NCBI GenBank assembly: GCA_963729685.1 | Contig: CAVSOX010000018.1 | Span: forward strand, 273,944-337,943 | Source of the DNA: an uncultured delta proteobacterium | GTDB lineage: Bacteria > Desulfobacterota > Syntrophorhabdia > Syntrophorhabdales > WCHB1-27 | Direction: 5' to 3' | DNA length: 64,000 nucleotides | In this document: piece by piece, positions 19,442 to 41,355 of the stretch | Position numbering within the stretch: position 1 is the stretch's first letter | Layout: each line of letters starts with the position of its first letter | The notes under the pieces: model-generated | Database searches by the model: none | The model's input: the letters and a program-made list of their open reading frames with translations, nothing else | Told to the model about the DNA's origin: nothing | Translations under genes and position numbers: made by a program

Positions 19442-19525
19442 GAAGAGTGAAAGGCAGTGACGAGTGACGAATTCAACGCAATAGGTTTCTTTTTCACTCG
19501 GCACTCGGCACTCGTCACTCGTCAC
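19442..19525. repeat. Heptamer-mosaic intergenic repeat, locus A
   Basis: Left arm ..GTGACGAGTGACGA; AT-rich centre ..GCAATAGGTTTCTTTTT; right arm CACTCGG CACTCGG CACTCGT CACTCGT CAC (complement of GTGMCGA units). Confidence 0.85.
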
Positions 19526-19551
19526 TTGAGGCGGGGGTCGGAGGCGAGGCG

Positions 19552-20469
19552 GTGAACATCTTTTTACCTATCGCGCAGATGAGTCTCAGCATCCCGGTGA
19601 TAATCGCCGTCGGCGGGGTGGTAGGGCTGCTGTCCGGGCTGTTTGGCGTCGGCGGCGGCTTTCTGCTCACGCCGCTCTTGATGTTCCTGGGCATATCGCC
19701 CGCGGTGGCGGCGGCGTCCGGCTCCGCGGGGATCGTCGCCGGATCGGCGACCGGAACGCTGGAGCATTCGCGGGGCAGCACGGTGGACTACAAGATGGGC
19801 TTCTGGCTCTTTGTAGGCGGCTCCGTGGGGAGCGTCTCGGGCGTCGAGATCATCCACTGGCTCAACCGTTTCGGTCCTGCCAACTATGTCATCCGGGTCC
19901 TCTACCTGGTCATGCTCGGCGCCATAGGGAGCATCATGCTGATCGACTCGGCCCGGACGTGGCGAAGCGGCGCCTATATGTCGGAGCGGAGGTTCGAGCC
20001 CGTCCGCACCCGCAGATGGGTTGACTCTCTGCCCTTCCAGGTGCACTTCCCGACGTCGGATATCAAGGTCTCCTTCCTGCTCCCTGCCGCCTTCGGCGCT
20101 CTGGCCGGCGTCCTTGCGGCGATGATGGGTGTGGGCGGCGGCTTTATCATGATCCCGCTCATGCTCTATGTGCTGCGCATGCGGATCCACGTTGCGGCGG
20201 GAACGAGCCTGTTCCAGATACTCTGTACGTGCATGCTCGTCACCGTGCTCCAGTGCGGGCAAAACCATACGGTGGACTTCGTGCTCGCCTTCCTGCTCGC
20301 CATGGGCTCGATGGCCGGGGCGGTGGTCGGGGCGAGACTGGGGCGGCGCCTGCGGGCGGATCAGCTCAAGGTCCTGCTCGCTATTATCATCCTCGTGGTG
20401 GCCTGCCAGGTAGGCATCGATCTCTTCAAGACGCCCACGACCTTCCTTTCCCACGTGGCGGGAGAATGA
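19552..20469 (+). CDS. TSUP-family (TauE/SafE) membrane permease
   Basis: 305 aa; MNIFLPIAQMSLSIPVIIAVGGVVGLLSGLFGVGGGFLLTPLL.. and second repeat MGVGGGFIMIPLMLYV. Its stop overlaps the next start (ATGA at 20466-20469). Confidence 0.9.
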   Translation: MNIFLPIAQMSLSIPVIIAVGGVVGLLSGLFGVGGGFLLTPLLMFLGISPAVAAASGSAGIVAGSATGTLEHSRGSTVDYKMGFWLFVGGSVGSVSGVEIIHWLNRFGPANYVIRVLYLVMLGAIGSIMLIDSARTWRSGAYMSERRFEPVRTRRWVDSLPFQVHFPTSDIKVSFLLPAAFGALAGVLAAMMGVGGGFIMIPLMLYVLRMRIHVAAGTSLFQILCTCMLVTVLQCGQNHTVDFVLAFLLAMGSMAGAVVGARLGRRLRADQLKVLLAIIILVVACQVGIDLFKTPTTFLSHVAGE

Positions 20470-23400
20470 GGCGCATGATGTCCCGGCGAAGCGGCAGCCG
20501 CGTGCTCGGAGTCGCAAGCCTCGCGCTGGCGCTCGGGGCTCGTGTCGCCCGTGTGCGCCGGCACGTTCTCCTCCGTGGACCCTGCCTCCGTGTCGGCGGG
20601 GACATTCTATAGCGGCGCCACCCTTCACGTTCGCGGAAGCATAGGCGCCGGGTCCCAGGTCGTGATCCGGATAAAGGGGGCGTCGGAGCACCATGTGTTC
20701 AACCGCCGCGGTAAGATCGGCGGCTTCATGTGGGGGGGGATCGAACACGTGACCTTCCGGCATGCACCGACCTTTTACGGTGTATACACCTCCTCGGACC
20801 TCGCGGCGACGGCCCCTCCGGCCGTGCGCAGCCAACTCCAGCTTGGCTACGAGCCGCTCGAGACACAGATGGACGTCGAGGGAACGAAGGCGGACAAGCA
20901 CCTGATGATTACCTATTTCGTGCAGTTCAAGGAGACCGAGGGCCTGTACCGCATCGCGCCGGGAGCGGTGCGCCTTACCGACCCGCGGCGCGGGCGGCGC
21001 GGGTTCGATGTCGCGGTGCCGCTCTCCGCGAACACGCCCCCGGGAGACCTTGAGGTGGCCGTCTTCGAGCTCGCCGGGGGCGCCGTTGTCCACAATGAGA
21101 CAACGACGGTGCGGCTCCTGAGGGTCGGCCTGCCGGCTTACCTCTTTCGCGTGACCCACGAGGACGGCGTGCTCTTCGGTCTGGTCGCGCTCTTCATCTT
21201 AGTGACGAGCGGGCTCGTGATAGACTTCATCGTGTGCAGGGGGGACCCGGCTAAGCGCGGCCCAGCCCTGGAGGCCCTTGTCGACCTGCACCGGTTGATC
21301 GCCGAGGGCCTGTTCGGCGTGCGCAAGAGGACCAGATCCTCCGAAACTATTGCGAATCTGCACGGGAAGTACGAGCATTTCCGCGCCCTCCTCGCCCTCA
21401 ACAACGAGCTTCTCGAGCTCCTGGCAGAGCTGGAGGAGGAGTCTTCGTGGTCTACGCTGCGCCATCCGAGGGTGCGCATGGGGATCCGCGCCCTTTTCGA
21501 CGGGACCGAGGATATGGTCCAGGTGCTGAACCGGCTCACCGGGAATCGCTACTTCGATCTCACGAACGTCGTCGCCGGCGTGCGGTCGAGTGTCCTGACC
21601 TACCTCGCGAAGGTGTCCGAGCAGAAAGACCCTTGCCTGACCCTGCAAATGGAGGAGATCAACTCCAGGACCGCGGGCCAGGCGGGCGGCAAAGCCGTCA
21701 ACCTGGCCCGCATCGAGGAAGACCTCGGAATGCGCGTACCCAGGTCCTTCGTGGTCACGACCGAGGCCTACCGGGAGTTCATGGAAGTCGACGGGCTCGC
21801 GAGTAAGGTGCGGAGCGTCCTTGCGCCCGCACGCCTGGACGCGCCTGAGGATTTTCGGCGACGCTGCGAGCTGGCGCAGGACCTGGTTCGGGAGACCCGC
21901 GTGCCGCCGGCCGTGGTGGAGGCCATCTGCCTCGCGTACCGCTCCTCGTCCATTCCTCTCGCGGAAGGGGTCGCGGTGAGGTCCAGCGCGGCCGGGGAGG
22001 ACAGCCAATTGTCATTTGCCGGCCAGTTCGAGACGGTCCTCAACGTGAACGAATCGGACGTGGCGGAGGCATGGAAGCGGGTGGTCGTCAGCCGGTTTTC
22101 TCCCGGGGCCGTTTTTTACCGGCGGGCCGCGGGCCTGGCAGAAGTGGACACACCCATGGCAGTGCTCGTGCAGCGTATGGTGACCGCCCGGGCATCGGGC
22201 GTGCTCTTCACGCGCCGGCCCGAGGACCCGAAGGCGGCCGAGCTTCTCATCACCGCTGTCCGGGGGCTGGGCGCCCAGGCGTCGGCCGGCATCGCCATTG
22301 CCGACGAGTTTGTCGTGTCGCGAAGCCGTCCGTGGCGCATCCTGGACAGGCGCATCGCTCACAAGTTGGTGCGGCTCGCCGGCAAGGCGGGCGGCGGCCT
22401 TGCCCTGGTCCCGGAAGCCGCCGGGGAGCAGGATGCGGCGGCTATCACCGACGACGCGATCCTACGGCTCGTGGAGGCAGCCGTTGCCATTGAGCGCTAT
22501 TTCGGCCGTAGCCAGGACATCGAGTGGGCCATCGACCCCGAAGGAGAGATCTTCATTCTGCAAGCCCGGCCGCTCCGGGTCGAAAAGCCGGAGACGGCGC
22601 GCGGGGACCTGCCGCGTGATGTGGCGCCGCTCCTGCATGGGGGCGATCCGGTCTGGCTCGGGCGAGCAGTTGGTCCCGTCCACGTAGCGAGAAACGCGGA
22701 GGAAGAGAACCGCACCCCCCACGGCGCGCTGCTGGTGGTCCCCCAGCTCCTGCCCGATTGCGTACGGCTCCTGCCGAGGGTCTGTGGCGTGCTGGTGGAG
22801 CGGGGGACGGTGACGGGCCACGCGGCCTCCATCCTGCGGGAGTTCCGGGTGCCGAGTCTCTTCGGTGTTGCGGGCGCGGTCGCTACATTGACGTCCGGTC
22901 AGGTAGTGAGCCTCGACGTCGCGAGCCGCAGTGTCTTCGAGGGGGTCCTCTGGCCGAAGCTGCGGGGCCACCTTCCCATCACGCTCCTCGGCCGGCGCAC
23001 TACGGGTCTCCCGGACGTGCTGGCCGGCAAGCTCACGAAACTGAGCGGGAGCAGCTTCATGGGCACCTGGGCGTGCCAGTCCCTGCACGACGTCATCCGT
23101 TTTGCCCACGAGATGGCTATTCAATCGATGTTCGAGATAGGAGACCGGCTTCTCGACTCGCCCATCGGCGGGGTCAAGCAGCTCGATTCCCCTTCGCTGA
23201 TACAGATGTATCTCGTGGACCTCGGGGGTGGGCTCCTTCCGGAGGCAGGGTCCGGGCGGTCCGTGAAACCCGAGGATATCGCCTCGGTCCCCCTGAAGGG
23301 ACTCTGGCGGGGCCTGAGTGACCCGGAGTTCGACCGGGAACAGGATATCACGCTTCGATCGTTCGGGTCCGCAATCGGCAGGGGTCTGACAGCGGCGGGA

Positions 23401-23883
23401 CCGCGAGAGATGGGGGCGCCCAATTATGCGTGCGTCACGGAGAGCTACCTCAACCTGAACTCCCGGCAGGCATACCACTTCACGATCGTCGACGCCTTCC
23501 TTTCCGACAACCAGAATAACAATCACCTCAGCCTCCGCATGAAAGGCGGCGGCGGCGCCCTCTGGCAGCGCAACCTCCGGGCGGAATTCGTCGCTGAGGT
23601 GCTGCGCATGCACCACTTTACCGTGAACGTCGCGGGCGATCTGGTGAACGGCTGGGTTCGTGGGCTCGACCTGACGACGGGCGTCGAAAAGCTCACGACA
23701 ATCGGCCACCTGCTCCGTTTCTCGGCGCTCCTCGACATATCCATCACGAGCGAAGCCCACATGAAAAGCTACGTTGCCGCTTTTGTCGAGGCTGAAAGAC
23801 GGCGCCTGGCCGGGGATAGCGAGCCCGGGCAGCGCGTAGCAACAGTCTCAAAAATGGTGTCGACAACCGATCACCCCGTTTGA
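20466..23883 (+). CDS. Fusion protein: TIGR02186 (Alph_Pro_TM)-like exported domain + TM helix + PEP-utilising enzyme (PPDK_N ATP-grasp and phosphohistidine swivel) + uncharacterised C-terminal domain. Apparent 1-nt frameshift in the signal-peptide region (GGGG at 20535-20538)
   Basis: ATG 20466 gives MRRMMSRRSGSRVLGVASLALALG, then a frame change into the track ORF 20542..23883: ..VVIRIKGASEHHVFNRRGKIGGFMWGG.. and ..LSANTPPGDLEVAVFEL.. (TIGR02186-like). TM helix GLVALFILVTSGLVIDFIV. GGKAVNLARIEE..DIEWAIDPEGEIFILQARPL (PPDK_N). ERGTVTGHAASILREFRVPS (mobile His domain). Confidence 0.8.
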
Positions 23884-23953
23884 GACCGTTATTAACACAG
23901 ACTTCAGGCTTACGGGACTGCCAACTTAATAAAGGATCGGGTATAATCAATCC

Positions 23954-24683: not shown

Positions 24684-24712
24684 GGTAAAGTCCTATCCGG
24701 CTTGGCGCCCTT

Positions 24713-24865
24713 TCAATATCCCAGCCGATGCAGCGCCGGCACAACCGCGGCGGCGAACAGACAGTAGCAGCCGAAATAATGCCATTTCCCCCGGTCGAGC
24801 CAGCGAGTCAGCCATCGCAGCGCCAGAAGCCCCGCGAGGAAGCTTAAACCCAGGCCGCGGCCCAT
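24713..24865 (-). pseudogene. Possible C-terminal fragment of undecaprenyl-diphosphatase (UppP/BacA)-like gene
   Basis: MGRGLGLSFLAGLLALRWLTRWLDRGKWHYFGCYCLFAAAVV.. resembles the last ~45 aa of UppP (F..G.LA.R.L.R.L.R....F..YR). No upstream body is present. Confidence 0.3.
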
Positions 24866-24872
24866 GACCTGG

Positions 24873-25358: not shown

Positions 25359-25484
25359 GCACACCTTCTGTGGAAGCCCGGAGGCGCTCGGCTTGAGCCT
25401 GTCAAAGGGAGAGAATTCTGCGCATTGCCGCCGGAAATCCCGATAATTGTAGCACGGATCACACGGGAAGACTACAGAAGAACA

Positions 25485-25554
25485 GAAGGGAGAGGGGAGA
25501 GAGGAGCAGCGACGAGTGCCGAGTGCCGAGTGAAGAGAGGGGAGGGGGGAGGGG
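25485..25554. repeat. Heptamer-mosaic intergenic repeat, locus B (single arm)
   Basis: GA-rich GAAGGGAGAGGGGAGAGAGG, then GCGACGA GTGCCGA GTGCCGA GTGAAGA, then GAGGGGAGGGGGGAGGGG. Confidence 0.75.
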
Positions 25555-25687
25555 CCGTCGAGATATATGGGCTTCAAGTGCATATATTACTAAATGCGCG
25601 AACAATAAGCGAAGGCGGACAGACGTGAGATCGACCGGTTTGGTTGGACAGACCGGAGAAATCAAAAAAACATGGAAGGGGGAGCCT

Positions 25688-26131
25688 ATGAAGACAGAGG
25701 GAAAAGTGAAAGCGCTTCAGGCCGAGATCGTGGATGCGATGAAAAAGTGGCAGAAGGTGGAAGATGCTTCTCTTGCCTCTACGGGGCGCATCATCGAGAA
25801 GACGACAAACCCGATCATACGGCTGACCATGGAGGTTATCCAGCGGGATTCGCAGATGCACTACAATGTGGAGAAATGGGTTGCAGAGAGCCTTCAGGAT
25901 GCCACCATCTCGCTGACCCCCGAAGAGCTGAACGCCGTATGGACGATGATCGAGCACCACATAGAGCTGGAGCACAAAATGATCGATGCCGTGGAAAAGC
26001 TGCTCCCGTCGCTTAAAGGGAAGCGCATGGTGGTGCAGGAGTATCTGCTCAACTATCTGCTCGAAGACGAAACCAAGCACGCGAACCTGTTGAAGCGCCT
26101 GGAAGGCATCAAGAGGGGGATGCTGCCGTGA
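25688..26131 (+). CDS. Ferritin-like four-helix-bundle protein (hypothetical)
   Basis: AAGGGGGA SD then ATG 25688; 147 aa with ExxH-type pairs (ELEH, DETKH, QRDSQMH). Confidence 0.6.
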   Translation: MKTEGKVKALQAEIVDAMKKWQKVEDASLASTGRIIEKTTNPIIRLTMEVIQRDSQMHYNVEKWVAESLQDATISLTPEELNAVWTMIEHHIELEHKMIDAVEKLLPSLKGKRMVVQEYLLNYLLEDETKHANLLKRLEGIKRGMLP

Positions 26132-26232
26132 AATTGCGCCGGAAGCCGCATTTCCGGCAAAAGTCTGGAATCCTGGGAGAAAGCGTATTATCATGTTGTC
26201 GGTTTATAAGAGGGGAGGGCAAAAAAAGACGC

Positions 26233-27204
26233 ATGGGTGGCGCATCCCATAAACCGACGCGGATCGCCCAGGAAGTTCTCCAGGGCAATGAAAGAAGCGC
26301 CGCGCGGCTTATCTCACTCATAGAGCAGGAGGACCCGGAGGGGTACAGGGCCCTGTCGGACCTGTGGCCTCCAGGCCGGTGCGCCCACGTCGTGGGGATC
26401 ACGGGCGCCGCGGGCTCGGGCAAGAGCACCCTCATCAATGCGCTCACCCGGCGTTTGCTCAAAGAAGGGAAGAAGGTCGGCATCGTCGCGATCGACCCGA
26501 GCTGTGCCATAGGCGAGGGGTCTCTGCTCGGAGACCGTCTCAGGATGAAGGACGCGGAAAAATCGGAGGGCGTCTTCATTCGGTCCATGGCCCAGCGCAA
26601 ATACCCGGGCGGTGTCTGCAGGGCCGCGACGGGCGCCGTCTGCGTGCTGGAAAGCATGGGAAAAGATTTTGTGATGATCGAGAGCATCGGGGCCGGTCAA
26701 TCGGACAAAGAGCTTTTTTACCTGGCTGATACCATCATCACCATGTTTACCCCGGAATTCGGCGACGAGATCCAGCTTATGAAGGCAGGGCTCCTCGAAA
26801 TCGGGGACATAATAGTGGTGAACAAGAGCGACAAGCCGGGGGCGGACGACGTGAAGCGCGCGATAGAGGCGTACCTGCCGGAGACAAAGGAGAAGGGGTG
26901 GAAGGCGCCGGTGTTGGTGCTGCGGGCCGACAGGGGCGCAGGGCTGGACGAGCTTGCCCGCGCTCTCGCCGGCCATGCGGAGTTCTATCGAAGCGAGAAA
27001 GCGGCCAAAAGGGGCGAGAAGTACGCCCATTTTACCATGACCCTCCTGAAAGAAGAGGTCTGGAAGCGTTTTTCGGAGCAGTCTTCGCGCACATCTTTGG
27101 CGCATGTCCTCGAAAAAGTGAGGCGCGGCGGGCTCGATCCCTATAGTGCCGTGGGGCAAATAGGGGCGGAGTTCGAGGCCATCATGAAGGGCAGTGACGA
27201 GTGA
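26233..27204 (+). CDS. meaB: MeaB/ArgK-family G3E GTPase (methylmalonyl-CoA mutase-associated)
   Basis: RLISLIE.., P-loop GITGAAGSGKSTLINAL, ESIGAGQSD, VVNKSD; likely start ATG 26233 (MGGASHKPTRIAQEVL). Confidence 0.88.
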   Translation: MGGASHKPTRIAQEVLQGNERSAARLISLIEQEDPEGYRALSDLWPPGRCAHVVGITGAAGSGKSTLINALTRRLLKEGKKVGIVAIDPSCAIGEGSLLGDRLRMKDAEKSEGVFIRSMAQRKYPGGVCRAATGAVCVLESMGKDFVMIESIGAGQSDKELFYLADTIITMFTPEFGDEIQLMKAGLLEIGDIIVVNKSDKPGADDVKRAIEAYLPETKEKGWKAPVLVLRADRGAGLDELARALAGHAEFYRSEKAAKRGEKYAHFTMTLLKEEVWKRFSEQSSRTSLAHVLEKVRRGGLDPYSAVGQIGAEFEAIMKGSDE

Positions 27205-27280
27205 AGAGGGGAGAAAAGAAAGTGACGAGTGTCGAGTGCCGAGTCAAAAAAAGCGCCGCTCTTCACTCGTCACTCGTCAC
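27192..27280. repeat. Heptamer-mosaic intergenic repeat, locus C
   Basis: Begins in the last codons of meaB: CA GTGACGA GTGAAGA GGGGAGAAAAGAAA GTGACGA GTGTCGA GTGCCGA GT ... CTCTTCACTCGTCACTCGTCAC. Confidence 0.85.
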
Positions 27281-27294
27281 TATATTCTCTGAGG

Positions 27295-31852: not shown

Positions 31853-31890
31853 AGGAGCGCCCGGCTGTCAAAAGTATCTCGCAAGGCGAA

Positions 31891-32048
31891 ATGACGAGTG
31901 ACGAGTGGGAAGTGCCGAGTGGCGAGTGAAGAGTGAAGATGGGAGAGGGAGAGGGGAGAAGGGAGAGCGGTGAGTGAGGGTTCCAACTCGTCCGTCGCTT
32001 CTTTTGTCTTCTCTCGTCACTCGTCACTCGGCACTCGGTACTCTCCCT
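31891..32048. repeat. Heptamer-mosaic intergenic repeat, locus D (full-length, ~158 bp)
   Basis: ATGACGA GTGACGA GTGGGAA GTGCCGA GTGGCGA GTGAAGA GTGAAGA, then GGGAGAGGGAGAGGGGAGAAGGGAGAG, then ..GGTTCCAACTCG.., then ..CTCGTCACTCGTCACTCGGCACTCGGTAC. Confidence 0.9.
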
Positions 32049-32100
32049 TCGCCATCGGTTTTTTTTGACAAGGTTCGTGGAAAATGTATATGTTAGTTTC

Positions 32101-33422: not shown

Positions 33423-33438
33423 GTACTATCTGTTGTCG

Positions 33439-33454: not shown

Positions 33455-33499
33455 TTTTAGTACTTCTCAATAGTTAGACAAAAGGGGGCAGAAAAAACG

Positions 33500-35584
33500 A
33501 TGGAGACGACCGACCTGAACCTTTTCGTACGCACCTCGGAAGAGACCATCTCCGACTGGGACCGAACAAGGATAGTCGACGCCCTGATGAGAGAGACGAT
33601 GATCGATCAGGATACGGCCATGTCGCTCAGCGCCGGCGTGGAGGACCTGATCAAGAAGTCGGGCATCAAGATGGTGACGGCCCCGCTGATCAGGGAGCTC
33701 GTCAACGCGAAGCTGATCGAGAAGGGTCTGGAGTCTGCCCGGAGGATGCACACCAGGCTTGGTATGCCGATCTACGACGTCGGCAACCTGATCCTTCATC
33801 AGAATAAGGAGAATGCGAACGTGCCCCATGGGCCGGAGGCGACCAACCTCACGTTAGCCGAAAGGATAAAGAAGGAGTATGCCCTCCTCTCCGTTTTTTC
33901 CCAGGATGTAGCCGACGCGCACATGAACGGCGATATCCACCTCCATGATCTCGGCTTCATAGACAGGCCCTACTGCAGCGGCCAGTCCCTCGAATACATC
34001 AAGAAATTCGGGCTCAACCTCCCCCACTCGCTTTCCATGGCAAAACCCGCGAAGCATCCGGAGGTGCTTCTTGCCCACCTGGTGAAGTTTGCCGCGGCCT
34101 TGCAGAGCAATTTCGCGGGGGCCATAGGCTGGGATGCCATCAACATCTTCTTTGCGCCGTACCTTGAGGGCATGAGTGATAATGACGTCAAGCAGCTCGC
34201 CCAGATGCTCATTTTCGAGTTTTCGCAGCAGGCGGTGGCCAGAGGCGGCCAGGCGATCTTTACGGACATCAACCTCTATTGGGAGATACCGAAGCACTTT
34301 GTCGACGTCCCGGCTATAGGACCGGGCGGGGTTTTCACCGGTAAGACATACGGAGAGTATGAGAAAGAGGCGCAGCGGTTTGTCTGGAAGCTGTTCGAGG
34401 TCTTCAAGGACGGAGACGGCGCGGGACGTCCCTTTTTCTTCCCGAAGCCCCTCGTCCACATCACGGAAAAATTCTTCAAGACCGAGGGTTACAATGACTT
34501 CCTGAACCATATCTCGGATGTCGCCGCGGACAAGGGGAATACCTACTTCGTCTTCGACAGGGGCGAAACGGCCAAGATATCGGAGTGCTGCCGCTTAAGC
34601 TTCAAGCTGGATGAATTCGACCTCCTCGACGCGAGAGAGCCGTGGCGGATGCGCTATTCCGCGCTGCAGAACGTCTCCATCAACCTTCCGCGCATTGCCT
34701 ACCTGGCCAAAGGTGACGATACGCAGCTTTTCAGCCTGCTTACGGAGAAATTCCTGCTCGCCGTGACGGCCCACAAAGAGAAGCGGGCTTTCATAGAGAG
34801 GCTCCTCTCGTCGGGAGAAGACGGCCCTCTCGCGCTCCTGACCATGAACCGGGACGGCATGCCCTACCTCCGGATGAACAGGGCTTCCCACCTCGTGGGG
34901 ATGGTGGGCCTCAATGAAATGGTGCAGATACATGCAGGCGAGGAGATGCATGAGTCGAAGAAGGCGCTCAAATTCGGCCTGAAGATCATGGCCCACCTGA
35001 AGCTCCAGGCGGACAAGATGAAGGCGCAGGAGAACATGAGGCTCGTTCTGGAGCAAACCCCTGCGGAGAGCACGAGCTACCGGTTCGCGAAGCTCGACCT
35101 CCATTATTTCTCTCCTGCGTCGGGAAAAGCCGTAAAGGGCGATGTCTCTTCAGGCGAGGTCTACTACACGAACTCCACTCACCTGAACGTGTCAGTGCCG
35201 ATGAATCCCATCGAGAGGGTAACCAATGAAGGGCTGTTCCATCCCCTGATAGAGGCCGGGTCCATTTCCCACGTCTGGATCGGTGAGTCGATGCCGTCGA
35301 AAGAGGCTATCGGCGATTTCGTCACGAAGACTTTCAGGTATACGTTGAGCGATCAGATCGCCTTTTCGCCGGAGTTTACCGTGTGCAATGCGTGCAATCA
35401 GACGTCACGGGGGCTGGCCGACACATGCCCCCGCTGCAACTCCCACGAAGTGGACGGCATCACCAGGATCACCGGTTATTTTACCAAGGTATCGAGCTGG
35501 AACAAGGGCAAGCTGGGAGAGCTCAAGGACCGGTACCGCAACGGCGAGTTCTTCTCCGGCGAGCAGCAGAGAAAGGTTGTCTGA
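33500..35584 (+). CDS. nrdD: Anaerobic ribonucleoside-triphosphate reductase (class III) with N-terminal ATP-cone
   Basis: 694 aa; ATP-cone DWDRTRIVDALMRE..; Zn site CNACNQ..CPRCN; glycyl-radical tail GITRITGYFTKVSSWNKGKLGELKDR. Confidence 0.95.
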   Translation: METTDLNLFVRTSEETISDWDRTRIVDALMRETMIDQDTAMSLSAGVEDLIKKSGIKMVTAPLIRELVNAKLIEKGLESARRMHTRLGMPIYDVGNLILHQNKENANVPHGPEATNLTLAERIKKEYALLSVFSQDVADAHMNGDIHLHDLGFIDRPYCSGQSLEYIKKFGLNLPHSLSMAKPAKHPEVLLAHLVKFAAALQSNFAGAIGWDAINIFFAPYLEGMSDNDVKQLAQMLIFEFSQQAVARGGQAIFTDINLYWEIPKHFVDVPAIGPGGVFTGKTYGEYEKEAQRFVWKLFEVFKDGDGAGRPFFFPKPLVHITEKFFKTEGYNDFLNHISDVAADKGNTYFVFDRGETAKISECCRLSFKLDEFDLLDAREPWRMRYSALQNVSINLPRIAYLAKGDDTQLFSLLTEKFLLAVTAHKEKRAFIERLLSSGEDGPLALLTMNRDGMPYLRMNRASHLVGMVGLNEMVQIHAGEEMHESKKALKFGLKIMAHLKLQADKMKAQENMRLVLEQTPAESTSYRFAKLDLHYFSPASGKAVKGDVSSGEVYYTNSTHLNVSVPMNPIERVTNEGLFHPLIEAGSISHVWIGESMPSKEAIGDFVTKTFRYTLSDQIAFSPEFTVCNACNQTSRGLADTCPRCNSHEVDGITRITGYFTKVSSWNKGKLGELKDRYRNGEFFSGEQQRKVV

Positions 35585-35635
35585 TTCTTGACGAGGGAAG
35601 TGGCGAGCGGGGTACACCGAGCGAAAGCGAGCTAA

Positions 35636-35768
35636 AGCGGGGAGGCTCGGCGGGCTTATGCCCGTCGAGGGGGCGCTGAGCCCCAATGACTGAAAGCGAG
35701 CGCATGCGAAGCGCTGAGCGGGGAGGCTCGGCGGGCTTATGCCCGTCGAGGGGGCGCTGAGCCCCAAT
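35636..35768 (+). repeat. Tandem direct repeat (2 x 52 nt, period 81 nt), each copy folding into two hairpins
   Basis: AGCGGGGAGGCTCGGCGGGCTTATGCCCGTCGAGGGGGCGCTGAGCCCCAAT occurs at 35636-35687 and 35717-35768. Hairpins: CUCGGCGGGC-UUAU-GCCCGUCGAG and GGGGC-GCUGA-GCCCC. Both flanks share GAAAGCGAGC. Confidence 0.9.
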
Positions 35769-35788
35769 AATAGAGGAGGGCACGCAAG

Positions 35789-36052
35789 ATGGGAGTGGTA
35801 AAGATTTTCTACAAGGACGATTGCCCGAAGTGCCCTTTGGCGAAACAGCTCGGAGATAAGCTGAGGGAGAGGGACGTGGATGTCCTCACCTACAACGTGG
35901 GGACAGCGGACGGGCTCGCCGAGGCGAGCTTCTACAGCATCATGTCGCTGCCCACGGTGCTTGTGGAAGACACGATGGAAAACGGCATAGGAGAGTGGAG
36001 AGGAGACGTCCCCAAAGTGGAAGAGGTGCTTCACGCTGTCCATTCTGCCTGA
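35789..36052 (+). CDS. Glutaredoxin/thioredoxin-fold small redox protein (NrdH/Grx-like)
   Basis: 87 aa; VKIFYKDDCPKCPLAK (CPxC); ..LPTVLV..; AGAGGAGGG SD. Confidence 0.8.
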   Translation: MGVVKIFYKDDCPKCPLAKQLGDKLRERDVDVLTYNVGTADGLAEASFYSIMSLPTVLVEDTMENGIGEWRGDVPKVEEVLHAVHSA

Positions 36053-36758
36053 TTTTCCCGTCAAGGGTTTTATCGAGACGAGCTTCATCGACTGGAAGAC
36101 GCAGCTCGCGTCGGTAATATTTTCCGGAGGCTGCAATTTCCGGTGCCCTTTCTGCCACAACAGGAAGCTGGTGCTCCACCCCCAGTCCATGGAGGACGTG
36201 CCTTTTGACCATATCCTCGGGCGCTTGAAGAGATTCCGGAAGTGGGTGGAGCGGGTGGTGGTCACCGGGGGCGAGCCCACCATGCACAAGGGCCTCGTGA
36301 GGGTCGTCGAGACCTTCAAAAAACAGGGACTCAAGGTGAAGCTCGACACGAACGGGTCACGGCCGGACGTGGTCAAAGGGCTTGTCGACGAGGGACTGAT
36401 CGACTATATCGCCATGGACGTGAAGGGACCCCTCGGCGCCTACGAGAGGTGGTGCGGATGCCCCGTCGATAAGAAGAAGATCAGGGAGAGCATCGATTTT
36501 ATCCTGGAGGGGCGCGTCGATTATGAATTCAGAATGACCCTCGTGCCCTTCCTGCACCGGGAAGAGGATGCTCTTCAGGTGGCGAGAGAGATCAGGCCGG
36601 CCCGTCGCTTTTTCGTGCAGGAGTTTGTCCCCAGGGAGACCCTCAATGAGAAATACGCAACCATAAAGCCGTTCTCTCCGGAAAGAATGAAAGCCATAAG
36701 GGAAGCGGTCGCCGCCGTCCTTTCGAATGCCCCTGTCCGCCGTCATATACACGAGTAA
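36042..36758 (+). CDS. nrdG: Anaerobic ribonucleotide reductase activating protein (radical SAM); start codon unresolved
   Basis: Frame reads ..PDFPVKGFIETSFIDWKTQLASVIFSGGCNFRCPFCHN.. (CxxxCxxC at 36132-36155), then ..VVVTGGEPT..KLDTNG. The first canonical start (GTG 36171, used by the track) lies downstream of the Cys motif; only ATT 36042 and CTG 36045 are available upstream. Confidence 0.8.
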   Translation: MLPDFPVKGFIETSFIDWKTQLASVIFSGGCNFRCPFCHNRKLVLHPQSMEDVPFDHILGRLKRFRKWVERVVVTGGEPTMHKGLVRVVETFKKQGLKVKLDTNGSRPDVVKGLVDEGLIDYIAMDVKGPLGAYERWCGCPVDKKKIRESIDFILEGRVDYEFRMTLVPFLHREEDALQVAREIRPARRFFVQEFVPRETLNEKYATIKPFSPERMKAIREAVAAVLSNAPVRRHIHE

Positions 36759-37407
36759 CGAGGCCTTTTCCTCCATGAGGGACGCGGTCCGGCGGAGGGC
36801 CGAAGGTCGTGGAATAAAACCCTACACATTTTCCTTTGCCCACAAGCTGGAGACAGGCGCCGTCCGTGTGCGGGCGACCGAGCTTGCGAAAGGTGTCCTG
36901 ATGCCCGTGGTGAGAGAGATGGTAGAAAAAGGAGAGGCAACCCTCGCCTCACGGCCGGACAGAGAGGTAAGGGAGGCGGCCTTTGATGAGCTTATAGAGG
37001 ACGGGGACCGGACGAGGAGGGTCGCGACCGTCCGGTTTACGTCGCCCACGATTGTCGAGGTCCAGGGAAGGTACGTGCCTTTTCCTGTTATCCATGCCAT
37101 ATTTGCCGGGTACCGTGAGATCTGGAGCGCCTTTTCGCCCATTCCGCTCCCTCCGGCGGCAGAGGCCCTGGAGCACGTAGCCGTGACCGATTTCAAGATT
37201 TCCTGCGCCACGCCCGGCCTGATCGGGCCGGGGGCGGCCTCCTTTGGGGTCGGGGCGGAAGGGTGGGTCACGCTGGAGATGGAAAGGGGGCGGACCGAGC
37301 AGGAGATCGCTTTCTTCAACACGCTGATCGATTTCGCCTTTTACTGCGGCACAGGCGCCCATACCGACGAGGGGCTGGGGCAGACGAGGAGATGGGAGAA
37401 GAGGTGA
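36727..37407 (+). CDS. Cas6-like RAMP-family protein (orphan; no other cas genes or CRISPR array in window)
   Basis: ..GIKPYTFSF.. (Cas6 'pFtfS' motif), ..VRFTSPTIVEVQGRYVPFP.., and C-terminal G-rich loop FAFYCGTGAHTDEGLGQ (GxGxxxxxGxG, compare Cas6 GFGEKNSLGFG). ATG 36775, 17 nt after the nrdG stop, is an alternative start. Confidence 0.55.
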   Translation: MPLSAVIYTSNEAFSSMRDAVRRRAEGRGIKPYTFSFAHKLETGAVRVRATELAKGVLMPVVREMVEKGEATLASRPDREVREAAFDELIEDGDRTRRVATVRFTSPTIVEVQGRYVPFPVIHAIFAGYREIWSAFSPIPLPPAAEALEHVAVTDFKISCATPGLIGPGAASFGVGAEGWVTLEMERGRTEQEIAFFNTLIDFAFYCGTGAHTDEGLGQTRRWEKR

Positions 37408-37530
37408 GGGACGAGTGCCGAGTGACGAGTGAAACGCTCTCATAGGTCCTATTCGACCTATAGGACCTATGAGAAAGCGAAACAGGGCCTTACGGACGCA
37501 GAGGAACGGGTTGCCCGCGCCCCTCGTCCC
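37402..37530. repeat. Heptamer-mosaic intergenic repeat, locus F (with perfect 14-bp AT-rich inverted repeat 37439-37473)
   Basis: GAGGTGA GGGACGA GTGCCGA GTGACGA GTGAAAC, then CTCATAGGTCCTAT-TCGACCT-ATAGGACCTATGAG, then a degenerate right arm ..CCCTCGTCCCTCGG. Confidence 0.85.
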
Positions 37531-37544
37531 TCGGTCAATTGCCT

Positions 37545-38099
37545 TTACGGCTGGCCTATAGGGAGCACGGTTTTTCCGTGGGACTCGTTGATTACCTCCG
37601 CCATGGCAAGGTACAGGGCGGCGGCGCCGCACGTGATGCCCTCCCATCCGGCGATTATCCCTATGGTAGCATTTCCGCTCCAGTCCCTGATGGCGAGGAG
37701 CCAGAAAAGCACGGTGAGGCTCAGAAAGACGTACTGGAGTACCCTATTCTTTCCCCATGTGCCGAACCACATGAAGAAGGTGAACACCCCCCACATGAAG
37801 AGGTACCAGCCCATAAACCCGACGGGAACCGCGGGGATGTCCTTAAAGACAAGGATAAAGACAAGGGTCCACCAGAAAAAGCCGTAGGAGATAAAGGCAG
37901 TCATACCGAAGGTATTGCCTTTCTTGAACTCCAGGATCCCTGCAATAACCTGGGCGATCCCCCCGTAGCACAACCCCATCGCGAAGATCATGGAGCCAAG
38001 GGGAAAGAACCCGGCATTGTGGATATTCAAGAGGACCGTCGTCATGCCGAAGCCTGCCAGCCCGAGAGGTGCTGGATTTCCTAATTTTTCCGCTTCCAT
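37545..38099 (-). CDS. satP: GPR1/FUN34/YaaH-family acetate/succinate channel
   Basis: 184 aa, 6 TM; NPAPLGLAGFG signature; ..YGGIAQVIAGILEFKKGNTFG. Confidence 0.88.
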   Translation of the reverse strand: MEAEKLGNPAPLGLAGFGMTTVLLNIHNAGFFPLGSMIFAMGLCYGGIAQVIAGILEFKKGNTFGMTAFISYGFFWWTLVFILVFKDIPAVPVGFMGWYLFMWGVFTFFMWFGTWGKNRVLQYVFLSLTVLFWLLAIRDWSGNATIGIIAGWEGITCGAAALYLAMAEVINESHGKTVLPIGQP

Positions 38100-38383
38100 T
38101 GTAATGATTGCCTCCCTTTATTATAGATTATGAAATTGGCAGGGTATCCCCCGCAAGCCATATTAGGGCAATCAAGATTCCAACGGAAGAATCGGTCCGT
38201 TCGGTCCGCGCGTTCATGTCGCATGCGGAACGGCCACATTCTTATTGTAAATGCTTGATTATCCCCCCCGAGCGCGAATATAGCACAGGAGAAAATGGTG
38301 TGTCAATTCTTTTGTGCATATTTTCTCATGCTCGGGAGGTTTTTTTGCGATCAGGGCTTCGGTCGGCCGCGGCGCCTCGAGCG

Positions 38384-38416
38384 CAAAAAAGGGGAGGCGG
38401 GCGCCTCCCCTTTTTT
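38384..38416 (-). terminator. Rho-independent (bidirectional-type) terminator
   Basis: A6-GGGGAGGC-GGGC-GCCTCCCC-T7, 30 nt past the stop of the 38447..38803 gene. Confidence 0.8.
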
Positions 38417-38446
38417 TGATCGGTTTTTCTCGCCTGGCGATTCGGG

Positions 38447-38803
38447 TTACATCCCTTTGTAGCCAATGGACGAAAGATAATGGATATGATTGACCGTCTT
38501 GTAGACTCCGGTCACCTCTGCACCAACCTTGAGGCCCTTTGCCTGGTTGTACTCCTGCATAAACTTGGCATAGTCATCCTGGAGGGTAAGCTCGCCCTTC
38601 GGGGTTTTCACGATGACGCAGTGACACATAGGGTCGTGGCTTACGACCGTACCGGAAAATTTCACGTCTTTTGCCTTGGCGAGCTGGCTATCGAATGCCG
38701 TCTTGCTCCACTCAGCCCCGCCGGCGCCTTCCTGAGCCATGGCCCGACCCACGAACATCAACACGAAGCACAATAAAGCGACTACCCACAAACTCTTTCT
38801 CAT
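38447..38803 (-). CDS. Hypothetical secreted protein
   Basis: GAGGAGGG SD then ATG 38803: MRKSLWVVALLCFVLMFVGRAMAQEG.. (signal peptide); 118 aa. Confidence 0.65.
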   Translation of the reverse strand: MRKSLWVVALLCFVLMFVGRAMAQEGAGGAEWSKTAFDSQLAKAKDVKFSGTVVSHDPMCHCVIVKTPKGELTLQDDYAKFMQEYNQAKGLKVGAEVTGVYKTVNHIHYLSSIGYKGM

Positions 38804-38957
38804 GTCTTCCCTCCTCATTAGATTTTTAAGAACCGGTGGCAATGGCGAATGCCCACGGACATAATATAACCCTCAGAAAAGGGGTTGACAAGGGTTCGCT
38901 GAAGTTTTGTGCAGAAATTTCGTATTCGTCGCCTGCCACCTCTTCGCTGCAAGAAGA

Positions 38958-39242
38958 TCAGAACGCGATGCCCAGCGCCGGCTTGAACACAACGGCCAGG
39001 GCAAGACCGACATCGGCTTTTTGCCACAGGCTCAAGCCGGTGACATCGACCTTCGCCAGTCTGAACAGGAATATGGCGATGCCCGACAAGGCCGAGCCGA
39101 TCAATACCCAGATAGGGACGGATACAAGACTGATGCCGAGACCGAGCCAGATACCGGAGGGCGTCGCCGCCCCGGCCATGCAGGTGTTGATAAACCAAAC
39201 CGTCGCACAGAGACCAATGAAAAGGTGTTTGTCGGAATACAT
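38958..39242 (-). CDS. Hypothetical small membrane protein
   Basis: AAGGAGGG SD then ATG 39242: MYSDKHLFIGLCATVWFINTCMAGAATPSGIWLGLGISLVSVPIWVLIGSALSGIAIFLF..; 94 aa. Confidence 0.6.
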   Translation of the reverse strand: MYSDKHLFIGLCATVWFINTCMAGAATPSGIWLGLGISLVSVPIWVLIGSALSGIAIFLFRLAKVDVTGLSLWQKADVGLALAVVFKPALGIAF

Positions 39243-39474
39243 CAGCTGCTCCCTCCTTATGTTGCTTTCACCGGTTGATTCGCCGAAGGCCTCTCGTTCC
39301 GGGGATCCCTGCGCACTTATCAAGACCCGGCAGCTTCATCGATCAGTAACAAGAATCGTGCCAGGCATCGATCAATTGACCGAAGCCTCCGAGCCTTTGT
39401 CCTGGCGTGTCTTTCTCGGAGTGGACGTGTTGCGACGATGCAGCGCCTTAGCCGGTTGGTTCTGAAAAAGAGGA

Positions 39475-40518
39475 CTATGTCCTGAAAACAGGACTATCGG
39501 TCGATATCGGGCGCCACATTACCTGCGGTCGGCCGCGCTCTTGGGTGATCTCCCGCCGCACCTTCGAGAGGGCTTCAAGCAGGATAAGGTGCCCGATGGT
39601 TTCTCCGAGGGCAAACCATTTCTGGGAGAGCGGAAAGAGGTCGAAGGAATCAGCGACAATGTCCCAGGTCATTTCGGAGGCCACCTGATAGGCGGTTTTC
39701 GGTCCGGTCTTCAGCACATGGAGGGCTTCCTCCGCCCTTTTTTCGTGGTGTATTTTCAGCTCCTCGATCCTTCCCCGCATATCATGGAAGACGGACCGGT
39801 GGCCGGGCAGGACGAGGGTCACGTCGAGGAGGGCCGTGCTCTCCAGGCTTTTCAGGTACTCCTGAAGAGGGTTCCAATTATCGAACCAGCCCTGGATGTT
39901 GGGCGTGATATCGGCAAGGATGTGGTCGCCAGAGATCAGCATGCGGTGTTCGGCGTCGTAGAGACAGGTATGGCCGAAACTGTGGCCGGGCGTCTCGACG
40001 CACCGGAAGGTATAGTTGCCTGCGCGTATGGTCTGCCCGTCATGGGTCTGCGTGAAGCGAAGGGGCAGTTGGGGGCCGTAAAGGTGAGCCGGATGACGAT
40101 CGAGGGCATCACGCAGCTCGTGCTCGGGAAAGCCGTGCAGGCGGCCGGACCTTTCGAGGTTCTCGAGGAACCCGCCGGCCAGAACACGGGAGGCGTCCGG
40201 CCCGTTCAGGTAGATCGCTGCCGTCTCCGCGGCGAGATCGGAGACGAGGCCGAGATGGTCGGCGTGAAAGTGGGTGATGAAGAAATCCGTATCGGGAAGA
40301 CTGATGGCTAAGCGCTCCAGCCCGGCCCGCATGACGTCCAGGCACTCCCTTCGCCTCATGCCCGTATCGATGATCAGATTGCGCCCCCGCCCCTTTATCA
40401 CATAAGAGTTGACGGCTTTCAGCGGGTTTCCCGGAAGGGGTATCTCAAGCCGGTAGATGTCTTTCATTACCTCTTCCGGGTTGCTCCGGGAGCGGTCCGA
40501 TTTCCTCTCACCATCCAT
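39475..40518 (-). CDS. MBL-fold metallo-hydrolase
   Basis: ..NSYVIKGRGRNLIIDTG.., FITHFHADHLG (HxHxDH), ..TPGHSFGH.., LPGHR. Start is either ATG 40518 or ATG 40467; the track start 40596 overlaps the upstream gene. Confidence 0.8.
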   Translation of the reverse strand: MDGERKSDRSRSNPEEVMKDIYRLEIPLPGNPLKAVNSYVIKGRGRNLIIDTGMRRRECLDVMRAGLERLAISLPDTDFFITHFHADHLGLVSDLAAETAAIYLNGPDASRVLAGGFLENLERSGRLHGFPEHELRDALDRHPAHLYGPQLPLRFTQTHDGQTIRAGNYTFRCVETPGHSFGHTCLYDAEHRMLISGDHILADITPNIQGWFDNWNPLQEYLKSLESTALLDVTLVLPGHRSVFHDMRGRIEELKIHHEKRAEEALHVLKTGPKTAYQVASEMTWDIVADSFDLFPLSQKWFALGETIGHLILLEALSKVRREITQERGRPQVMWRPISTDSPVFRT

Positions 40519-40552
40519 GAGTCTTCCCTTTGGTGCGGCCGGCCCGGAAGGT

Positions 40553-41089
40553 TTAGGGGGCGCTTCCCCCGTACCGGTTATACTGTATTTTTTCATAATC
40601 GAGCCCTTCCGCCGGCTTCGGGGCCTTGTGGTCCTGCCGGGCTATACCTATGCTTATCATGCAGTCCACCCTCAGCGCTTTCGGTATGTCGAGGGTTTCC
40701 CGCACGTACTCTTCGGCGGTCTTTTCCGCTGAATGAGGCCTGCTTCTGATCTGGATCCAGCAGCTTCCAAGCCCGAGGGAGTGGGCAGCGAGCTGCACGA
40801 CTATCGCGGCAATAGCGCAATCCTCGATCCACACATCCGATTTCTGCTCGTCCCCACAGATTACGATGCCGAGGGCGGCACCTTTCAGAAAATCGGAGCC
40901 TTGCGGCTTCGCCTGCGACAATCGCAGGAGCATATCCGGATTGTCGACCAATATGAACGTCCAGGGACGGATGTTGCGGGAAGAGGGGCACAGGAGCAAT
41001 GCCTCCTTCATCGACTCGAGGGTCTGCGGGTCGATGCGCCCTTTTTCATAGCTCCTGACGCTCCGCCTCGTTCGCAAGATATCGATCAT
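40553..41089 (-). CDS. Nitroreductase-family protein
   Basis: ACGGAGG SD then ATG 41089: MIDILRTRRSVRSYEK..PSSRNIRPWTFILV..; 178 aa. The track start 41308 translates repeat DNA. Confidence 0.85.
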   Translation of the reverse strand: MIDILRTRRSVRSYEKGRIDPQTLESMKEALLLCPSSRNIRPWTFILVDNPDMLLRLSQAKPQGSDFLKGAALGIVICGDEQKSDVWIEDCAIAAIVVQLAAHSLGLGSCWIQIRSRPHSAEKTAEEYVRETLDIPKALRVDCMISIGIARQDHKAPKPAEGLDYEKIQYNRYGGSAP

Positions 41090-41172
41090 GGCATGCCTCC
41101 GTAAGGAAATAGAATCGATCTGCCGGTCGGGACAGACTATCAAATAACACGTTCCCGACCGGAAGGCAAGCG

Positions 41173-41355
41173 GTGAAGAAGTGCCGTGTGAAGAAGTGCC
41201 GAGTGACGAGTGAAGAGCAGTGCCGAGTGGCGAGTGACGAAGTGATGAGTAAAGGAAATAGGTCTTATAGGTCAAATAGGACTTATAAGACCTATTAAAA
41301 GTTTCCAACTCTCCCCCTCTCTTTCCTTGTCTTCACTCGGCACTCGGCACTCCGC
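41173..41355. repeat. Heptamer-mosaic intergenic repeat, locus G (full-length, with 13-bp AT-rich inverted repeat 41257-41296)
   Basis: GTGAAGA A GTGCCGT GTGAAGA A GTGCCGA GTGACGA GTGAAGA GCA GTGCCGA GTGGCGA GTGACGA A GTGATGA, then AATAGGTCTTATA-14 nt-TATAAGACCTATT, then ..GTTTCCAACTCTCCCCCTCTCTTTCC.., then ..TTCACTCGGCACTCGGCAC. Confidence 0.9.

Follow-up and report, generated by a model that had tools for sequence, protein, structure and literature searches.

Convergent heptanucleotide repeats at variable intergenic palindromes of a Syntrophorhabdales-like bacterium

Since the short tandemly repeated repetitive (STRR) sequences of cyanobacteria, with their heptamers CCCCAGT, TTGGTCA, and CAACAGT, the origin of heptanucleotide repeats, their preference for a 7-nt unit, and their function have long been unexplained. 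BOX elements of Streptococcus pneumoniae, which occur in streptococci only, are made of fixed-sequence modules of 45-60 nt and have no 7-nt periodicity. The present analysis concerns a 64-kb stretch of DNA from an uncultured member of the Syntrophorhabdales (positions 273,944 to 337,943 of contig CAVSOX010000018.1, assembly GCA_963729685.1; hereafter the window), in which six intergenic loci carry tandem GTGNNGA heptamers and their complement TCNNCAC.

The closest described counterparts are the GGGAATC repeats of Xanthomonas, which occur as 70-75 pairs per genome in convergent orientation and are capable of forming stem-loops (Rehm et al. 2015, PMC4692102). Of these repeats, 89-93% are intergenic; their mean distance from the upstream ORF is 28 nt, and they occupy the same intergenic sites in two species with highly variable length and sequence; most are transcribed, and no function was found for them (PMC4692102). 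According to the account of Mrazek et al. (2007) given in PMC4679880 and PMC4692102, heptanucleotides are the most abundant class of long simple-sequence repeats in most genomes, and a link with polymerase slippage has been suggested. A further heptamer, TAACTGA, is common to marine Beggiatoaceae, cyanobacteria, and Bacteroidetes, and how it might have passed between them is not apparent (MacGregor 2015, PMC4679880). On the side of hairpin elements, repetitive extragenic palindromic (REP) sequences are single hairpins of 20-40 bp in which the stem has 5-13 bp, the loop has 2-20 nt, and a GTAG or CGTC tag stays unpaired (PMC3733652), the GTAG type being associated with REP-associated tyrosine transposases (RAYTs) (PMC3733652, PMC2817692). 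Proposed roles of REPs and of the bacterial interspersed mosaic elements (BIMEs) that they form include mRNA stability, supercoiling, and termination (PMC3733652, PMC2817692).

The six loci of the window lie between 19.4 and 41.4 kb (Table 1). With at most one mismatch, the heptamer dimer GTGNNGAGTGNNGA matches the window 38 times against 3.65 +/- 2.1 expected from shuffles, a count reached in none of 100 shuffles (largest value, 11), and 35 of the 38 matches fall within the six loci. Tandem Repeats Finder (TRF) reports a period of 7 at all six, so that the tandem heptamers described by the initial annotation of this DNA are borne out. When at least two strict units in tandem are required, no array is found outside these loci in the 64 kb. 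Counting strict units alone, an array has 2-7 of them; with degenerate units included, the number in phase rises to as many as ~10, and the resulting range of 2-10 shows no mode at 4. The GA-rich blocks (GGGGAGA), which had been taken for an added piece, are present and likewise have a period of 7 in TRF, with unit AGAGGGG; because they and the odd units keep phase with the clean heptamers when the loci are written in rows of seven, they are part of decaying heptamer arrays and not a separate module.

Five of the six loci are long imperfect palindromes of the form (GTGNCGA)n...(TCGNCAC)n, and every two-armed locus has the G-rich array (F) on the left and its complement (R) on the right. Their arms measure 15-49 nt and are 76-100% complementary, the spacers between them 15-113 nt, and the elements of the window 68-186 nt, while the interiors of the six copies are unrelated to one another. 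Under both RNA and DNA parameters, long hairpins are predicted on both strands at the five two-armed loci, with RNA fold energies of -27 to -80 kcal/mol; on the plus strand, the z score is -1.8 at locus 1 and ranges from -4.2 to -7.2 at the other four. The initial annotation had counted at least seven loci of one architecture, each with a complementary right arm. This arm exists at five loci, and locus 2 is single-armed. A degenerate arm placed after the nrdD stop (35590-35625) is not counted as a member because it gives no period-7 signal and sits in a block 91% identical to that of a relative, unlike the fast-changing elements. Rather than one family of fixed architecture, the loci are palindromes derived from simple repeats, with changing units and interiors.

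Among the inner modules, ATAGGWCYTAT matches the window 10 times against 1.68 expected and forms hairpins at loci 5 and 6 (Table 1), as had been noticed; the version proposed at 19479-19489 bears merely a weak resemblance. The GTTCCAACTC motif, which had been put forward as shared between loci, does not reach significance in the window alone, with 3 matches where 2.08 are expected, and in relatives it recurs next to the ATAGG core inside the elements. The arms also differ in coding potential. At most loci the 5' arms hold stop codons in two to three frames, because GTGACGA and GTGAAGA contain TGA, while the 3' arms hold none in any frame; since the latter are open in all three frames, they give rise to the spurious ORF starts at 27229, 37429, and 41308 that had been pointed out. 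The elements thus create false N-terminal extensions that can mislead gene callers.

The intergenic placement claimed for the elements was confirmed at the meaB stop, at the stop of a Cas6-family gene, between cysS and galT, and between the nitroreductase and aldo-keto reductase genes. The gaps concerned are co-directional for loci 1 and 3 and probably 2, divergent for loci 4 and 6, and convergent for locus 5. On a rough gene map, elements occupy 6 of 14 gaps of more than 100 nt within 18.8-41.4 kb and 0 of 17 elsewhere (Fisher p = 0.004).

The same unit is found far beyond this lineage. Scanning one genome per species (596 Gb) for GTGMCGA x3 returned at least 120 loci, whereas ~2 chance matches would be expected by our own estimate for a 21-mer with three two-fold degenerate positions. 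By their record titles, the matches listed include Acidobacteriota (Pyrinomonadaceae, Thermoanaerobaculia), Chloroflexota, Verrucomicrobiota, Planctomycetota, Gemmatimonadota, Bacteroidota, Latescibacterota, Nitrospirota, cyanobacteria, and Xanthomonas. Among these listed matches, all 22 close pairs of opposite arrays have the G-rich array first and the C-rich array second; a looser search for partners finds 41 downstream and 1 upstream (p = 2e-11), and clusters are of the F-R type in 20 cases and of the R-F type in none. Paired arms match at their variable positions (GTGCCGA/TCGGCAC, GTGAAGA/TCTTCAC, GTGCTGA/TCAGCAC), and about two thirds of the arrays have no partner. Furthermore, an ORF of at least 200 codons (stop-to-stop) ends between -40 and +20 nt of the element in 52.5% of cases against 7.8% at random. 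Location inside stop-to-stop ORFs (76% vs 95%) does not discriminate in these GC-rich genomes.

Neither the period nor the polarity is a property of GTGNCGA alone. In 842 kb of carrier genomes, there are 183 period-7 arrays, 67 of them with other units, against 3 arrays of period 6 and 9 of period 8. In hairpins made of unrelated heptamer units and with unequal G and C (contigs L001-L120 and L130-L186; for example L026 791-864, L085 5914-6048, and L153 7254-7423 and 9823-9999), it is the 5' arm that has more G than C in 23 cases and the 3' arm in 2 (p = 2e-5). Arrays and hairpins of many other units, including GAAGGAT, AGCTGTT, GGACTGA, GAACTGA, and AGTGGTT, occur in these genomes as well as in viral contigs. 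In viral contigs, the triple unit occurs at 29 loci and three control heptamers of the same composition at 16, 6, and 6. Since control heptamers also form arrays, heptamer arrays are generic, with GTGNCGA as one of the commoner units; the idea of a unit uniquely conserved across phyla is weakened, as it is merely 2-5 times commoner than the controls in these contigs.

The nearest named homologues of the CysS protein of the window belong to Syntrophorhabdales (78%) and Syntrophorhabdaceae (75%). Syntenic relatives, identified through MeaB and CysS homologues on peat and soil metagenome contigs (L121, L122, L126-L129, and L187-L196), were compared at 81-90% protein identity; a metagenome scan with the conserved galT promoter returned no match, and a relaxed pattern returned two loci. 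Strict GTGNNGA arrays are nearly absent from the syntenic relatives, and the 21 kb of one whose CysS is 90% identical contain no arrays.

At the cysS/galT site, the window carries GTGNCGA and GGGGAGA arrays, while in L122, L128, and L187 arms of the GGACGAG type enclose GAGTTGGAAACTC together with a core of four ATAGGTC 9-mer copies. The inner modules of these three relatives are those of locus 6 of the window in reversed orientation, so that the ATAGG core and GTTTCCAAC are found at non-orthologous loci. In L129 and L188, long palindromes of the GGGACGA type occupy the site and bring two more interiors, among whose features is a GTCCCTTCGGGAC hairpin. In L127 and L191, it is empty and reads GATATCTCG(T/C)CA(T/C)(T/C)GGTTTTTTTT, with a lone R-type heptamer retained. 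Occupied sites show three different left boundaries between lineages, all within one 60-nt intergenic site. Compared with the two empty sites, the inserts have no flanking duplication longer than ~2 nt, and the test for a MITE (miniature inverted-repeat transposable element) is thus negative. As a separate observation, the GTTCCAACTC-type motif at 31979-31989 of the window is opposite in orientation to that of L122 (15825-15840), L128, and L187, as one would predict were the stretch enclosed by the inverted arms able to invert or to be swapped for another.

Other sites tell of similar variation. The end of meaB reads AGT GAC GAG TGA (1.6 heptamers) in the window, L122, L128, and L126 and is different in L127 and L129. 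The elements of the window and of L121 begin exactly at this gene end and differ from each other, the L121 version being one-armed; in L122 their place is taken by a GGGGACGACCG hairpin, and in L127 there is no element. At the position of locus 2, each relative has some F-type heptamers, of a kind and number that differ in each. L129 holds two copies at unrelated sites with common arms and interior sequence. The GTCCCTTCGGGAC hairpin, of the C-UUCG-G tetraloop type, is a recurring module in the elements of relatives and is absent from the window (Table 1), and one of its copies directly adjoins an unrelated AGTTGTC heptamer hairpin on a viral contig.

From these alignments emerges the picture of old, persistent repeat-prone sites whose content turns over much faster than the flanking genes, and modules appear to move between loci. 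The different elements, empty sites, or lack of any element in relatives point to rapid turnover, probably by slippage and exchange between loci.

We propose that the loci are STRR-like heptanucleotide simple-sequence repeats, arranged convergently and evolving by slippage and exchange, whose hairpins resemble those of REPs and BIMEs. We assign this reading a probability of roughly 0.55, most of the weight resting on the identity and evolution of the elements and little on their function. The double likeness to STRR heptamers and to REP/BIME elements noted in the initial annotation is supported, as are the inverted arms and mosaic interiors. On each strand, a G-rich (GTGNCGA)n array runs toward the element center, which makes the DNA a long imperfect palindrome in the intergenic gap. 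According to this proposal, arrays would lengthen, shorten, and degenerate at their sites through replication slippage by 7 nt at a time, and interiors and arms would be exchanged or copied between loci through their common heptamer arms, by microhomology-templated copying or gene conversion, which would give mosaics without target-site duplications. Such exchange may be seeded at single pre-existing heptamers, candidates being GTGACGAGTGA at the 3' end of meaB and, where the cysS/galT site is empty, its single TCGCCAC. By analogy with REPs and BIMEs, the active feature would be the hairpin, whose structure in any crossing transcript could act as a 3'-end exonuclease barrier or as an insulator between genes; cruciform-prone DNA beside promoters may be an additional role. 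The elements may also be largely neutral passengers, tolerated only outside genes.

Several observations weigh against this proposal. Slippage accounts neither for the origin of the inverted partner nor for the 5' position of the G-rich arm (41:1 for the family, 23:2 for unrelated units); selection against a free C-rich arm exposed to Rho before its partner is transcribed is our own suggestion for this polarity. Locus 2 has no complementary arm and no hairpin (fold z = -0.9), and loci 4 and 6 stand between divergent promoters, outside 3' untranslated regions. Stem mismatches are of the G:T/T:G type in 17 cases and of the A:C/C:A type in 16, with no strand-specific G-U signal, and therefore give no positive sign of selection at the RNA level. 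Proximity to stop codons is partly trivial, since GTGACGA arrays hold TGA in all three frames: among the matches listed, 34 of 84 cases (~40%) come from a TGA in the array itself. Finally, the clustering of the elements within 22 kb is not accounted for.

An alternative that we consider unlikely is that the loci are non-autonomous mobile elements, of the MITE kind or of the kind of REPINs (REP doublets forming hairpins), with heptamer arrays serving as terminal inverted repeats for a transposase encoded elsewhere. The empty sites of L127 and L191, the three insertion boundaries within one 60-nt intergenic site, and the two copies of L129 with a common interior would all follow from mobility, and the fixed arm polarity among the matches listed (41:1; F-R 20 vs R-F 0) is as in terminal inverted repeats; REP dimers likewise strongly prefer one orientation (PMC3733652). 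Elements in other phyla are, among the matches listed, often bracketed by aGCA...TGCt. The lack of a target-site duplication counts against this alternative, but a single-strand HUH/Y1 enzyme would fit, as such enzymes leave none. On the other hand, the arms range from 2 to more than 30 units of variable sequence, even within one genome, the six interiors of the window are mutually unrelated, the degenerate units keep the 7-nt phase, as they would in simple repeats undergoing decay, and about two thirds of the listed arrays across phyla have one arm only. Pfam scans of 38 ORFs in the 64-kb window revealed no transposase, and since unrelated units obey the same polarity, many different transposases would be required.

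That the loci are regulatory or architectural sites acting at the DNA level seems improbable. The arrays would then be bound by a heptamer-recognizing protein or form cruciform-prone palindromes that absorb supercoils and insulate promoters. BIMEs are known to bind gyrase and IHF. Loci 2, 4, and 6 end a few to ~20 bases before promoter-like -35 boxes (32065, and after 41358 and 25554), single-stranded DNA folds are strong, and three units make 21 bp or, by our own inference, two helical turns. In Nostoc, deletion of heptamer repeats altered the action of LexA and NtcA at the recO promoter (bioRxiv 10.1101/2022.06.06.494920). Against these points, loci 1, 3, and 5 lie at gene 3' ends or between convergent genes, the units vary by locus and by relative and fit poorly with one sequence-specific binder, and no candidate binding protein was identified.

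We regard as similarly improbable a dedicated machinery behind heptamer-array hairpins in many phyla, whether a polymerase or reverse transcriptase that adds repeats to DNA ends in a polar manner or a nuclease or transposase specific to hairpins. If it existed, such a machinery would set the 7-nt unit, put the G-rich arm 5' on both strands, and re-seed sites at single heptamers, and the lineage of the window would be one with recent activity, close relatives being without arrays.

Bidirectional transcription termination is a very improbable explanation. Hairpins do begin at or just past stop codons at loci 1, 3, and 5, and across phyla among the matches listed, and transcripts of Xanthomonas started or stopped more often at repeats capable of forming a G-quadruplex (G4) than at control repeats (PMC4692102). 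However, no element is caught by an intrinsic-terminator scan requiring a small loop and a T-run, the loops measure 15-110 nt, and no U-tract follows the stems. In addition, loci 4 and 6 lie between divergent genes, locus 3 is in a probable operon, and the genome has a textbook bidirectional terminator at 38385-38416.

We give hardly any credence to the idea that the palindromes are scars of polar writing, in which both 3' ends at a DNA break would be elongated with a G-rich heptamer by a polymerase or reverse transcriptase that adds repeats, so that the rejoined ends would always read G-rich then C-rich on the top strand, as in a head-to-head telomere fusion: the 5' position of the G-rich arm in 41 of 42 family hairpins (among the matches listed) and in 23 of 25 hairpins of unrelated units, the constant length of 7 nt over many units and phyla, and arms that, among the matches listed, usually have the same unit variant with differing copy numbers and varying filler are what it would predict, yet no repeat-adding enzyme of such a kind is known in bacteria, nor was one found here, where no search aimed at it was made, arrays at orthologous sites persist over long divergence, single-armed arrays are common, and slippage combined with selection on orientation (for example against a free C-rich arm exposed to Rho) could yield the same polarity.

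Known classes of element were also considered. No element matches an RNA family of Rfam, the sole match of the window at gathering score being a tRNA (576-661). CRISPR arrays, whose repeats of 24-48 nt alternate with unique spacers of similar length, are rejected since the units are 7 nt long and contiguous, and no CRISPR-like array is present in the window, despite the neighboring Cas6-family gene. The inverted arms of a MITE are present, but there is no duplication of more than ~2 nt, the boundaries differ, and the copies are neither of fixed length nor near-identical. REPs and REPINs, including the CGTC-tagged type, are rejected because the arms are tandem heptamers of 15-49 nt, the spacers measure 15-113 nt, and CGTC occurs only within the TCGTCAC unit. 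Intrinsic terminators, which combine a GC-rich stem, a loop of 3-8 nt, and a U-tract, are likewise rejected, no element being among the terminator-like sites of the window.

Table 1. Heptamer loci of the window and related features (positions in the window unless a contig is named; strict arrays have at least two tandem units; F, G-rich unit; R, complement; fold energies in kcal/mol)
Feature	Position	Heptamers and complements	Strict arrays	Context and parts	RNA fold
Locus 1	19442..19527	19457-19525	19457-19525	Between a 176-aa ORF (stop 19436) and a TauE-family gene (start 19552); 5' arm AGTGACGAGTGACGA 19456-19470; 41-nt spacer; 3' arm (TCGGCAC)2(TCGTCAC)2 19498-19526; 15-nt arms, 100% complementary	plus -27.1 (z = -1.8); minus -31.3 (z = -4.4)
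Locus 2	25487..25554 (+)	25509-25543	25516-25536	Single-arm block of ~10 in-phase heptamers: GGGAGAG GGGAGAG AGGAGCA GCGACGA GTGCCGA GTGCCGA GTGAAGA GAGGGGA GGGGGGA	
Locus 3	27192..27281	27194-27280	27194-27280	5' arm GTGACGA GTGAAGA, starting within the last codons and stop of meaB; interior GGGGAGA AAAGAAA, then second array GTGACGA GTGTCGA GTGCCGA; 3' arm TCTTCAC TCGTCAC TCGTCAC; actual start of VTT-domain gene ~27297	-42.2 (z = -6.2)
Locus 4	31885..32055	31891-32041	31912-32034	Between divergent cysS (start 31852, minus strand) and galT-like gene; seven F heptamers 31891-31939; GGGGAGA-type block 31940-31967; interior with GGTTCCAACTC 31979-31989; R arm 32007-32055; 49-nt arms, 76% complementary; directly followed by the -35 box (TTGACA, 32065) of the galT promoter	plus -80.1 (z = -7.2); minus -58.1
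Locus 5	37388..37535	37408-37530	37415-37428	Between convergent Cas6-family gene (stop 37405-37407) and GPR1/YaaH gene (stop 37545); GA-rich coding tail, then F arm GGGACGA GTGCCGA GTGACGA; inner perfect hairpin TCTCATAGGTCCTAT/ATAGGACCTATGAGA 37438-37474; degenerate R arm CCCTCGTCCCTCGG ~37520-37535	plus -59.7 (z = -4.2); minus -63.8 (z = -5.6)
Locus 6	41173..41358	41173-41357	41196-41350	Between divergent nitroreductase (minus) and aldo-keto reductase (plus) genes; F array 41173-41250, ~10 heptamers with 1-3-nt phase slips; interior with ATAGGTCTT 9-mer hairpin 41257-41296, GTTTCCAACTC 41301-41311, and C-rich block 41312-41329; R arm TCTTCAC TCGGCAC TCGGCAC 41330-41358; directly followed by promoter-like TTTACA-17-TAAAAT	-80.4 (z = -7.0)
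Probable degenerate extra member	~17650-17830			Read by eye, outside the range of the initial annotation; TCGTCCT x2, TTGTCAC/TTGTCGC units at 13-nt period, GGGAGAGGGGAAAAGAGAGAGA block, GATAGGTCCT	
GTCCCTTCGGGAC copies outside the window	L121 2048-2060; L129 4429-4441, 13518-13530; L188 2614-2626; L178 467-479				

Genes around the loci that are confirmed by Pfam encode TauE, a PPDK-like fusion, PEMT, MeaB, a VTT-domain protein, MoeA, CysS, a GalT-like protein, radical-SAM, Cas6-family, GPR1/YaaH, and metallo-beta-lactamase proteins, a nitroreductase, and an aldo-keto reductase. The 694-aa ORF at 33500-35584 is read as a putative NrdD, its syntenic 694-aa counterpart in relatives having an NRDD domain; a look-up of proteins identical to NrdD returned none. 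The meaB ORF (26128-27204), which starts at a GTG and encodes 358 aa, exceeds its homologues by ~34 codons; alignments with them start near 26230, after AGAGGGGAGGGCAAAAAAAGACGCATG; therefore, the real start is probably an ATG at ~26233. Downstream of locus 2 lies a conserved block, followed by a 147-aa ORF (25688-26131) with no Pfam match; the ~680 nt starting directly after this locus (25475-26156) are found in the window, L121, and L127 and are absent at L122 9781-9823. The degenerate element shares a 760-nt geneless gap (17619-18379) with a run of 18 C followed by (CGTGCACTTT) x2.3 at 17969-18014. Ordinary terminators are in use in the window, namely the bidirectional AAAAAAGGGGAGGCG..CGCCTCCCCTTTTTT at 38385-38416, and a perfect 19-bp intergenic hairpin is found at 46537-46585.

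Other features of the window are separate from the heptamer loci. A perfect 52-nt direct repeat, AGCGGGGAGGCTCGGCGGGCTTATGCCCGTCGAGGGGGCGCTGAGCCCCAAT, occurs at 35636-35687 and 35717-35768, 81 nt apart, past the end of nrdD and ahead of a small gene resembling thioredoxin/glutaredoxin (Thioredoxin_3 in Pfam, 35789-36052); it has no Rfam match at gathering score and looks like a tandemly duplicated structured leader. Further along, a stand-alone Cas6-family gene (36727-37407; PF10040, E = 7e-12) overlaps the end of a radical-SAM (NrdG-like) gene, with no other cas gene or CRISPR array within the window, and the order nrdD, small redoxin, radical SAM, Cas6 is kept in L122 and L129. Lastly, a 59-nt copy, 97% identical, of the anticodon-to-3' part of tRNA-Leu(CAA) (576-664) is found 5.6 kb downstream at 6175-6233, where ARAGORN calls no tRNA, and the 11-mer TTGTGATAAAA occurs near both copies (723-743, 6072-6092). 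This partial copy looks like an old integration scar, but the intervening genes are ordinary (metallo-beta-lactamase, AhpC, Tex).

The initial annotation had not assigned the unit to any described family. While a search for any 14-mer of the repeat found no paper in the library searched, the kind of element is already published for Xanthomonas (PMC4692102) and unexplained, and the window is a further example and not a new kind. What is new is a unit that does not form a G-quadruplex, the host lineage, the inner modules, and the extension of the polarity rule over units and phyla. Since GTGNCGA cannot form a G-quadruplex, the G-quadruplex explanation favored for Xanthomonas cannot be general. 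The polarity itself, with the G-rich arm nearly always 5' in at least five phyla and many units, is a constraint that any mechanism must reproduce. Furthermore, the cysS/galT site, which among close relatives is empty or carries at least four different elements, offers a natural system for the origin of such elements.

Compared with known systems, the loci share with BOX elements a modular mosaic, pairing complementary terminal modules, variable tandem internal units, and intergenic location, and differ from them by their 7-nt periodicity and the lack of fixed 45-60-nt modules. As with REPs, BIMEs, and REPINs (PMC3733652, PMC2817692), the elements are extragenic palindromes in mosaic clusters with a preferred orientation, no target-site duplication, and frequent location just past stop codons; unlike REPs, their arms are tandem heptamers in variable number, without a tag, and the 64-kb window has no RAYT gene (38 ORFs scanned). 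TAACTGA (PMC4679880), of which 2 to more than 40 copies occur, is likewise an intergenic heptamer common to distant phyla with stop codons in the unit. Nearly all TAACTGA repeats are direct, however (169 direct sets vs 1 indirect), and they lie just before start codons, suggesting translational control, whereas window-type elements are often inverted pairs and lie mainly beside stop codons. With STRRs and other heptanucleotide repeats, the loci have in common a tandem 7-nt unit, intergenic and dispersed location, variable copy number, and a period of 7 that is far commoner than others, while the unit and phylum are different and the elements of the window are dominated by inverted pairing with strict polarity. 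The nearest likeness is to the GGGAATC and GGGGA(C/T)T repeats of Xanthomonas and Nostoc (PMC4692102), which are also variable, convergent, G-rich arrays of a 7-nt unit located in intergenic regions near stop codons. In contrast to the Xanthomonas type, GTGNCGA has no run of three or more G and forms no G-quadruplex, of which only the GGGGAGA side blocks of loci 2 and 4 would be capable, and there is no preference for four units. The loci are further set apart by their inner modules (the ATAGGTC 9-mer hairpin and GTTTCCAAC), by their Syntrophorhabdales-like anaerobic host, and by the fact that two of the six are flanked by divergent genes, an arrangement rarer than expected among the Xanthomonas repeats.

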